The notes under the pieces: model-generated
The model's database searches: none
The model's input: the letters and a program-made list of their open reading frames with translations, nothing else
Told to the model about the DNA's origin: nothing
Assembly (NCBI GenBank): GCA_037308085.1
Contig: CP147779.1
Coordinates: forward strand, 800,001 to 864,000
Origin: Promethearchaeati archaeon SRVP18_Atabeyarchaeia-1
GTDB lineage: Archaea > Asgardarchaeota > Atabeyarchaeia > Atabeyarchaeales > Atabeyarchaeaceae
Direction: 5' to 3'
Length of the DNA: 64,000 bases
Shown here: one piece after another, positions 16,739 through 19,103 of the stretch
Layout of the letters: the number at the start of each line of letters is the position of its first letter
Position numbering within the stretch: position 1 is the first letter of the stretch
Position numbers and translations under genes: made by a program

Positions 16739-17000
16739 AGCACTTTCCAACCTACACGTCTAGTTACGTGACGGAAAGGCAGCCTGCTGCTCTTCTATAT
16801 GATTCGGCTTTTTCCCGGTCTAGTGGATTAAGGAGTCAACTACCACCTATTGAAAGAGGTATCAGATAAAGGTGACATTCGCAACAAATCAATAGGTTAA
16901 GCCCTCCCAGCGAAGGTTTGATAGGCATTAAGAAAACTGGGAGAGCCTAACCCAACAAAACAAATAGCATTCAGCCTGTTATTTCTTGGCTTAAGACACG

Positions 17001-17273
17001 CTAAGGTTTCCGTTTCTTCTTTCCTCCGATACTTTCAGCTTTCTTTCCTTCGGATGGTGCCAATAGGGGATCTGTCCACATATGACTGTTCTTCGGGTCG
17101 TATACACGACCGCAAAGGACGTCCGTAACATCGACAGCCCTGAGGGCTTCCTCAAAGATCTTACGTTGCTCAGCTTCAGAGAGAACGGCGACCATGATCC
17201 CTAGTTTGTGAAAGAGTTCATTTCTTCTTGTTCTGAAAATCTCAACGGTCTTAGCTTCTTGCTTTGATAACAT
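17001..17273 (-). pseudogene. probable 3' fragment of a HEPN-like gene
   Basis: FRTRRNELFH (RxxxxH) near the ORF start; abuts the iscB truncation point. Confidence 0.35.
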
Positions 17274-18313
17274 GCCAAGACGTCAAAAGAAAGATGGACA
17301 TGCGAAAAGAACTGCGTGATCGCCGCAGAGAGAGAAAGACGCGCTACAGAAAGCCACGATACAACAATAGAAGACGGCGGGAAGGATGGCTACCGCCAAC
17401 CATAGCCCAACGAGTCGAATCCATCACCCGAACAACAAAGGCCCTAAAGAAAATGACTCCGATCACAAGCGCAGTCGCCGAGATCGGCATGTTCGATACA
17501 CAAAGAATAACCAACCCGCAGATAGCAGGGGACGAATACCAGCGAGGACCAAGCTATGGCTTCAAAAACAAGAGACAAGCCACGCTAGCGTACTTCAAAT
17601 ACAGGTGCCAATACTGCGGAAAAACCAAACGGATAATGACCGTGGACCATGTCATACCCAAAGCAAAAGGCGGCACAGACGCATGGAGCAACTTAACCTG
17701 CGCCTGCAAGACATGTAACGACAACAAAGGAGACAGAACACCAGAAGAAGCAAATATGCCAAACCCCGAAACAGTGAGACTCGACACAAGCTTCCTCAAG
17801 TTCTGCGCCCTTACGCAATCAGGGAAAACCAGGCTCATCGAAGAACAACGGCAACTCACACCCACTCAAACGGTATACGGATGGCAAACCAAACAGAACA
17901 GAGAAACAGCAGGATTACCGAAGACCCACTATTATGACGCGCTCTGCACCAGGGACGTGACCAAGAAACCAATCAGACTGACAGACACCGTCCACGAGAT
18001 CAGGCTCAGGAGACGCAACACACGACGAACACACATCCCAAGTCCGAAGAAAGGAGGAGGAAGACAGCCCTACAACGAGAACAGGAGCCTCAGAGGATAC
18101 AGAAAAGGAGACCTAATACGAACACCGCACGGAATAGCATACATTAGAGGAATAGGAACACGGAAACGACTTAGCTACCGCACTATTCAAGGGCAAACGT
18201 CAGACATCATCCCAGAGAAAGTCAAACTAGTCGAAAGAACCAAAGGCATTCAGTTCTTCCCTTTGTCAAAACCTGAGAAACCTAGCGAAACCGAAATCAA
18301 TGAACATCGATGA
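17264..18313 (+). mobile_element. iscB: IscB (RRXRR/HNH) OMEGA nuclease, 5'-truncated (no PLMP domain or RuvC-I)
   Basis: Arg-rich bridge helix, WLPPT, RuvC-II EIGMFD, HNH (CQYCG..DHVIP..GG..NL.CAC..CN..K), RuvC-III THYYDA; strongly A/C-skewed composition. Confidence 0.88.
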
Positions 18314-18325
18314 CAATGTCCGACT

Positions 18326-18605
18326 GTCAAAAACCCTCATCAGGTTTGAGACTAGGGTTAGTGATGTCCAATCAGGCGTTGGGCAAATGAACTACGTTCG
18401 GGAGATCAGCTCAAGTACCACCTGCAGATGCATGCTCTAGTCTGCAGCTCTGGGAGTCTGGGATGGACGAAAGCTCCCACCAAGCCCAGGGGGCTCAGAC
18501 CCGGGTGGCAACGCAAGGGCAACATCACTCAGACATGCGCTACTCCCAACATACCCGAAGGCCAACCTAACCCCACTGCCTGTCCCAACCGACAACAGTG
18601 GGAGA
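18326..18605 (+). ncRNA. omega RNA (HEARO-like)
   Basis: Ordered HEARO hallmarks: GTCAAAAACC..GACTAGGGT, AACTACGTT, ACC-TGCAGATGC..CTAGTCTGCAG-CTCTG, AACATACCCGAAGG, terminal hairpin CCCACTG..CAGTGGG; GGGT/ACCC pairing. Confidence 0.8.
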
Positions 18606-18801
18606 CACTAGCCACCGACGCCCATTTGAGTTTGCCTGCAAAAAACCGCCTTCGGAGCCCATCAATCGATCCGAATTCTCCAATACGCTACACAAAGATA
18701 TAAGACAAAGTAAACGGAAAGTACTACGGTCGGACCTCGAATGGACTCGATGACCGCGTCCGACAAAGTTGATGTCTCTCTTATGAGAGGCAGGATGATG
18801 A

Positions 18802-19005
18802 CTTATAGTTACGCGGAGAGTCTCCGAGAGAGTCCGCCATCCCCAGATGGCTAGCGATGTCGTTGCTTTCTTTTAGAATGGAGAGGTGCCACAGTGGAGT
18901 TGCTCATTTGTTGTTTGAGCCTAGGGCGCGCACAAGTTTGGCGTTTCCCGAAAGGTGAAACGATATGAAAGCTTATAGTTAGTTGGAGAGCTCTCGAGAG
19001 AGTCC
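18802..19005. repeat. two imperfect 34-bp direct repeats (18802-18835 and 18972-19005)
   Basis: CTTATAGTTAnnnGGAGAGnnnnCGAGAGAGTCC, 27/34 identical. Confidence 0.75.
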
Positions 19006-19103
19006 ATCGCTCTTCACAGTGCTTTGAGCGGTCGATAACTCCCAAAAATAGAAGAGATAGCAGGCTGGGGAAATCCGTTCAGGACATGTACGTCCCCAGT
19101 TCT

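Follow-up and report, generated by a model that had tools for sequence, protein, structure and literature searches.

IscB and IsrB, the transposon-borne ancestors of Cas9, are understood to keep their guide RNA at the transposon end, where it copies its guide from the neighbouring DNA. In the genome of an Asgard archaeon, the omega RNA of an iscB gene lies on the other side of the gene, directly behind its stop codon. Is this order an accident of one damaged locus, or is it an architecture in its own right? An RNA that stands behind its gene, with both under selection, would mean that the guide is defined otherwise, or that an RNA module and a nuclease have entered a new kind of partnership. 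We examined this locus in a stretch of 64,000 nucleotides (hereafter the window), which covers 800–864 kb of a 2.8-Mb single-contig genome (G000), and compared it with related loci in other Asgard genomes and in metagenomes.

The truncated iscB gene and the RNA behind it

The window holds a decayed, 5'-truncated copy of an Asgard IscB locus (Table 1). In alignment with full-length paralogues, its ORF starts at 'QDVK'; some 95 residues are missing from the N-terminus, among them the PLMP motif (present in the related loci L008, L012, and L032) and the RuvC-I stretch 'IDYGAK' with its aspartate. The Pfam RRXRR match likewise covers only profile positions 84–174 of 174. HNH, HNH_5, and HNH_4 are all intact (residues 115–165; E = 1e-15 for HNH and 1e-16 for HNH_5), and RuvC-II ('AEIGMFD') and RuvC-III ('KTHYYDALC') are recognisable in the alignment. 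Both Pfam and the alignment against the paralogues thus bear out the first-pass annotation, made from the sequence of the window, in describing a protein without RuvC-I but with an intact HNH. Nucleotide homology with the paralogue in the same genome sets in abruptly at 17277, and the protein is 66–67% identical to that of L032.

Table 1 Features of the iscB locus, in window coordinates.
Feature	Positions	Strand	Description
Single-copy DNA, rpl35Ae stop to truncated iscB	16739-17276	.	About 540 nt; occupies the place of the missing iscB 5' part
Truncated iscB ORF	17264-18313	+	349 aa; bridge helix, RuvC-II, HNH, RuvC-III, and C-terminal domain kept
Presumed guide segment	18310-18325	+	16 nt (ATGACAATGTCCGACT) directly 5' of the scaffold; overlaps the stop codon; guide position by analogy with canonical IscB omega RNAs
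HEARO-type omega RNA scaffold	18326-18570	+	Rfam RF02033, full model (1-211), 39 bits, E = 8e-6
P1 stem	18326-18352	+	Begins GTCA, an ISC/IS605-type 5' terminus; apical hairpin shorter than in the canonical sister L044
3'-terminal hairpin	18571-18604, then ACACTAG to 18611	+	CCCCACTG...CAGTGGG; the same hairpin and motif directly precede the ORF in the canonical sister
Tail	18612-18697	+	Ends in blocks AATCGATCC.. (18664) and GCTACACAAAG (18687-18697); possible right transposon end
ATAT	18698-18701	+	Where four sibling loci have ATG; expected TAM/TnpA-target position

The single-copy DNA in front of the gene is absent at the syntenic site of a sister-genus genome (G002). It carries a 90-aa ORF on the minus strand (17001–17273) that has no Pfam match and begins in overlap with the TTG from which the truncated iscB frame is read. 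We considered its first part (16739–16830) as a remnant of the 5' end of the iscB ORF and rejected it, the similarity not being significant. Relative to the syntenic site, the window is longer by about 1.9 kb beyond the stop of rpl35Ae, a difference that does not by itself fix the ends of the element. The alignment of the whole region with G002 is marginal, with none of 500 shuffles reaching its score, and the tail alone is not significant; since the window tail aligns marginally with the G002 intergenic region, it may be host DNA. On the plus strand, between the scaffold and gcvH (minus strand, 19104), there is no ORF longer than 51 aa and no similarity to IscB, in agreement with the first-pass annotation, by which no PLMP-bearing ORF follows the scaffold.

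A strain variant in a public run has two 1-nt deletions within the iscB ORF, and no empty-site or excised form of the element occurs among the DNA contigs compared with the region. The genome contains only two iscB copies, which are diverged (70% nucleotide identity) and whose left end is undefined, unlike the numerous copies with shared, sharp ends that mark an ISC/IS200-IS605 transposon. Neither is intact, the other copy (793.4–795.0 kb) having a frameshift and a stop. With a truncated gene of its own and no intact iscB elsewhere in the genome, the omega RNA of the window has most likely been orphaned and so far escaped decay.

The scaffold begins 12–13 nt past the iscB stop (TGA at 18311–18313, GTCA at 18326), as had been claimed from the sequence, and the whole omega RNA extends over 18326–18611. 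A search with the HEARO covariance model had been proposed as a check, and it did return a full-length match to RF02033, although at 39 bits this lies below the gathering score of 83. Since the scaffold of the canonical sister locus also reaches only 42 bits, the low score is a property of the clade and not an effect of the layout. Across the whole 64-kb window no Rfam family reaches its gathering score, and the scan therefore detected neither tRNAs nor any other known RNA genes there.

Comparison with related scaffolds gave a far stronger signal. With nhmmer, the window scaffold matches six sibling scaffolds beside iscB genes at E-values of 1e-68 to 1e-93. We derived a consensus fold from an alignment of ten scaffolds (the window and nine related ones), in which 34 of the 64 consensus pairs show compensatory changes, some of them between members of the clade, and none of 500 shuffles reached the observed values. 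Paired cells amount to 96.4% of this alignment, compared with 85% in the shuffles and about 40% when the partners were slid. The window copy retains 61 of the 64 pairs, as many as the copies beside intact genes; its first-pass description as a well-formed scaffold holds. Judged by its sequence and predicted fold, the scaffold is a HEARO-type omega RNA, clearly homologous to the nine related scaffolds. A search of public runs for RNA data containing the locus listed none.

Gene-then-RNA layout in related loci

The order found in the window is shared by all seven members of its IscB clade, which come from two genomes and several metagenomes: the window copy and L008, the second, frameshifted iscB of G000; L012 (with L013) and L032, from a genome of the same genus; and the metagenomic loci L049, L053, and L050–52. 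In each of the seven, nhmmer places the scaffold 0–90 nt downstream of iscB, and upstream of the genes no HEARO match was obtained in any of them (cmscan to E ≤ 10; nhmmer --max). The first-pass annotation had asked whether intact relatives also have a downstream omega RNA. Three of these loci (L032, L049, and L050) have intact ORFs with ATG starts, and in each of the three the sole omega RNA is the one behind the gene. In phmmer searches, the intact paralogue L032 matches the chains of the solved IscBs TbaIscB, HfmIscB, and OgeuIscB with E-values from 1e-36 to 1e-54.

In related loci outside the clade the scaffold stands in front of the gene. This is so in the closest sister, L043/L044 (59% amino acid identity), where it lies directly upstream, and in 39 other Asgard IscB/IsrB loci, among them 24 retrieved with the IscB query and 13 of the 13 IsrB relatives that were tested. 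In the protein tree, five layout-variant proteins form a clade with L044 (support 100/100). The tree allows the layout to have arisen once, though with weak support (59/89).

Pairwise dN/dS values within the clade range from 0.13 to 0.26 (for L012 and L050, for instance, 0.22 at a dS of 0.83). By these substitution rates the IscB of the clade is under purifying selection, which argues that the gene-then-RNA architecture has been functional. Two copies, one of either layout, show an unusual 5' end: in L012 (2662–2779) and L044 (207–447), no ATG, GTG, or TTG occurs between the preceding stop (or scaffold) and the conserved N-terminal 'TYVFV' strand. Either translation starts there at a non-canonical codon, or the two copies are perhaps not translated in full length.

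The same order recurs in a second nuclease family. The only IsrB of G000, which is intact and lies at 774.6–775.7 kb, has its omega RNA 42 nt downstream of the stop, and its nearest relatives (46–53% identity) have the canonical layout. The IsrB scaffold differs from the IscB type, and neither profile detects the other. Support for a variant architecture, one of the readings offered by the first-pass annotation, thus extends to the whole IscB clade and to an independent IsrB.

The IsrB omega RNA starts with GTCAGTTACCCA and a hairpin. At least nine IS605B/TnpB copies in G000 start identically, and in each the element is sharply set off from unique flanks; a transposon end therefore lies between the nuclease gene and the RNA at the IsrB locus. 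Comparison with an empty site in G002 shows that the IsrB insertion ends at the tail motif, just before ATGG. Three Y1 TnpA genes are present in G000 (PF01797 matches above the cut-off). Of all the loci, only that of IsrB yielded a possible upstream omega RNA remnant (p of about 0.005, and this only with a positional prior); in unrestricted Smith-Waterman searches, upstream remnants were not significant.

The IS605B family itself is 1350 nt long and encodes a 421-aa TnpB on the strand opposite the GTCAG end, with copies at 1958700 (+), 1949581 (-), 2605489 (+), and at least six further places. Its first 12 nt and hairpin are those of the IsrB omega RNA start, and its other end consists of a hairpin and ...GACTACTG, followed by TGA. 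The genome also contains two ORF-less, HEARO-like mini-elements (L009 and L010, at 18596–18706 and 322085–322165 of the genome) that start with (G)TCAAGAAC and a hairpin and that match Rfam HEARO with 32–37 bits over 82 nt.

Origin of the layout and position of the guide

How the RNA came to lie behind the gene can be approached through the junctions. In the canonical sister L044, the 3' hairpin of the scaffold and GCATTAC run directly into ACCTACGTC, the first codons of the ORF. In the variant loci, mutual homology begins at ACCTACGT, and the scaffold ends with the hairpin and ACACTAC. Between the codons for the C-terminal 'QFF' and P1 lies a segment of 0–90 nt, the least conserved part of the locus, which varies even between the syntenic L049 and L053 and within the close pair L012 and L050. 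P1 then starts with GTCA or GTTA in the clade loci; ISC transposons are reported to have 5'-GTCA termini and to insert at N|ATGA (PMC4810608). The apical hairpin of P1, which in relatives (L044) resembles the hairpin bound by TnpA or found at IS605B ends, is trimmed in seven of the seven IscB loci.

Behind the scaffold, every gene-then-RNA locus that extends far enough, IsrB included, has a tail of about 100 nt ending in AATCGATCCC...GGCTACACAA, a motif pair found in no canonical locus. The tail contains no conserved hairpin. ATG follows the terminal motif in four siblings and, in shifted position, in a fifth, whereas the window has ATAT. The stretch from the ORF to P1 shows, in the IscB clade, no recognisable right-end motif that a first element would have left. 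A left end of the composite element was not found either, the homology between copies stopping at the ORF start in some pairs and 76 or about 1280 nt upstream of it in others. There are no solo copies of the window-type omega RNA in G000, G002, or a third genome (G003), so the RNA module was not seen moving on its own.

By analogy with canonical omega RNAs, the 16–20 nt before GTCA that the first-pass annotation had taken as the guide are in the right place. They are, however, the least conserved part of the locus, and they have no detectable target: for the 16- and 20-mers before P1 of three G000 loci, matches in the genome did not go beyond those of shuffled controls, so the guide search proposed at the outset gave no target. 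The 18-mer before P1 of the window had no match in viral contigs. The corresponding 17-mer of IsrB had 10 matches, which we judge to be about chance level for a sequence of this length.

Our best model, towards which we lean with moderate confidence, is that of a docked module: an omega RNA unit without an ORF settled behind a nuclease gene, whose upstream omega RNA was later lost. Of the possible readings it is the simplest one consistent with known biochemistry. The model builds on what was observed, namely the order of the parts, conserved in seven IscB loci and one IsrB locus, the selection on RNA structure, and the purifying selection on the protein; co-transcription, the identity of the guide, its target, and the tandem origin are what we infer. 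In this scheme, an ORF-less ISC derivative, made up of a left end, an omega RNA, a tail, and a right end, would sit behind the nuclease gene. Its docking site would be the former right-end/TAM junction of the nuclease-bearing ISC, which IS200/IS605 insertion leaves intact, and the upstream omega RNA of the nuclease-bearing element would have been lost subsequently. The RNA module would thus read GTCA and P1 (an IS605/ISC-type end), HEARO scaffold, 3' hairpin, and a tail of about 90 nt with the terminal motif and, usually, ATG.

As to function, the omega RNA would be made by read-through, as a 3' extension of the nuclease mRNA. Canonical IscB RNAs have been reported to depend on transcription from upstream genes in the same orientation. 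About 16 nt in front of GTCA, belonging to the gene's end or to the linker, would serve as the guide, and the ribonucleoprotein would recognise the guide sequence together with an ATG-type TAM, which is the joint left if the RNA module is excised or absent. The weak, position-matched upstream scaffold remnant at IsrB fits a tandem origin. The first-pass annotation had likewise considered a tandem insertion remnant. As an origin this is plausible, because the junction reads as the end of a nuclease gene followed by a transposon-type left end; as a one-off accident of the window locus it does not stand, given the clade of seven loci. Several results count against the docked-module model: the missing left end of the composite, the lack of a right-end motif ahead of P1 in the IscB clade, the absence of solo RNA modules, the trimmed P1 hairpin, a tail that has no conserved hairpin and may be host DNA in the window, upstream remnants that fail to reach significance in unrestricted alignments, and putative guides whose targets do not exceed chance.

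A broader proposal, which we offer only tentatively, is that these loci represent a functional OMEGA class in which the 3' untranslated part of the nuclease mRNA would give rise to the guide RNA, while the 3' end of the same gene would dictate the guide. Nuclease genes, and not sites in the flanking DNA, would then be the places to which the module homes and behind which it is reinstalled, and a single Asgard genus would have evolved the arrangement on two occasions, once for IscB and once for IsrB. If true, this would show that an omega RNA need not stay coupled to a transposon end, and would mark a step toward free-standing tracrRNA-like genes.

Several other histories could be imagined. A single element might have been circularly permuted through a circular or tandem intermediate resolved at the junction of omega RNA and ORF, and then fixed as a non-mobile nuclease, its guide hard-wired within the locus, in the service of the host or of another element. 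Homology does end, on its outer sides, at the canonical junction (GCATTAC/ACCTACGTC in L044, compared with ACCTACGT ... ACACTAC in the variant loci), and the low copy number, the lack of solo RNAs, the trimmed P1 hairpin, and the long-lasting purifying selection would all suit a non-mobile nuclease of this kind. A fixed guide should nevertheless be conserved, whereas the guide segment is hypervariable in both length (0–90 nt) and sequence. The conserved tail and terminal motif after the RNA, which are common to the unrelated IsrB locus, and the identity of the IsrB RNA start to the end of active-looking IS605B copies also speak against permutation, and we regard it as unlikely. For the window copy in particular, a role in trans for some other nuclease of the cell (the intact IsrB at 774.6–775.7 kb, for example) would account for an RNA that keeps 61 of 64 pairs beside a truncated gene in a genome with an intact IsrB and no intact IscB. 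That IsrB, however, has its own, different scaffold, with profiles that do not cross-detect, and the RNA may simply have lacked the time to decay, and we consider such a role very unlikely. The stand-alone, trans-acting omega RNA of the first-pass annotation is conceivable for the window copy, its own gene being truncated, but the genome has no intact IscB to use it.

The order of ORF, RNA, and element end is also that of TnpB elements (Meers et al. preprint), and the RNA could accordingly lie on the 3' side of the element and take a 3' guide from the DNA beyond the right end. The likeness to TnpB/IS605 goes further, in that the RNA follows the nuclease and starts where the ORF ends or overlaps with it; the reading frames of L012 and L008 run on into P1. 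Yet the RNA is of another family: the scaffold is HEARO-type, collinear with canonical IscB omega RNAs, and implies a 5' rather than a 3' guide. The guide of canonical IscB omega RNAs lies at the 5' end, as in the solved IscB complexes, which weighs against a TnpB-like 3' guide. In addition, some 100 nt of tail precede the putative end, with 90–115 poorly conserved nucleotides between the scaffold and the conserved terminal motif, and we consider a 3' guide highly improbable. Chance juxtaposition, or a tandem remnant specific to this locus, might be suspected from the truncated, debris-like state of the window copy, but is scarcely credible when seven IscB loci of differing genomic surroundings and an IsrB locus all have this order, and selection acts on the protein as well as on the RNA.

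The docked-module model can also be set against known systems. Canonical IscB–omega RNA systems (OgeuIscB, KraIscB, and GstIscB, of ISC/IS200-IS605 elements) share with the clade an IscB homologue, HEARO-type helices, a GTCA start, and a TnpA in the genome. They differ from it in that the clade has its scaffold downstream of the ORF and none upstream, that the nuclease gene's last stretch, and not flanking DNA, occupies the place of the guide, and that the apical hairpin of P1 is shortened. ORF-less IS200/IS605 derivatives (PATEs or mini-ISC) resemble the segment of about 370 nt from GTCA to the terminal motif, which likewise contains RNA only; the clade segment, however, is never alone and always stands directly behind a nuclease gene. 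Our full-text literature searches found no description of an IscB or IsrB with a downstream omega RNA. A large published survey took HEARO matches only upstream of iscB, and since surveys of this design accept nothing else, the gene-then-RNA layout would be filtered out and real loci are missed. The three intact nuclease–RNA pairs (L032, L049, and L050) are open to direct testing.

Conserved non-coding DNA near the iscB loci

Upstream of iscB in L012 (1461–2740), L050 (1262–2462), and L053 (797–2072), about 1.1–1.3 kb of non-coding DNA is 76–80% conserved, while the flanking genes differ. It contains two perfectly complementary 12-nt segments, GATGCTCGTGAA and TTCACGAGCATC, about 110 nt apart, and has neither an Rfam match nor a conserved ORF. 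A 149-aa 'gene' called there in L050 was discarded, as it is not conserved as an ORF in L012. This DNA may encode a large structured RNA or represent what is left of a gene.

Near the second iscB copy of G000, a tRNA-like gene with a long insert (L066, 2234–2485; genome 792.7–793.0 kb) is 86% conserved in the genome of the same genus. The similarity between the two genomes stops at the 3' end of this intron-bearing tRNA(-like) gene, and the L008 iscB locus lies in the variable DNA beyond.

Within the window itself, behind the iscB locus, a non-coding element of 104 nt (18732–18835) is 87–90% identical in the sister-genus and same-genus genomes and is much better conserved than the adjoining genes. 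It has no Rfam match, includes the sequence ATGATGA, and opens with a hairpin, GGTCGGAC...GTCCGAC. A partial second copy (cttatagtta..ggagag..gagagagtcc) lies 170 nt further on, near 18975–19010, and contigs of related strains skip 18836–19098. The 104-nt element may be a small RNA gene.
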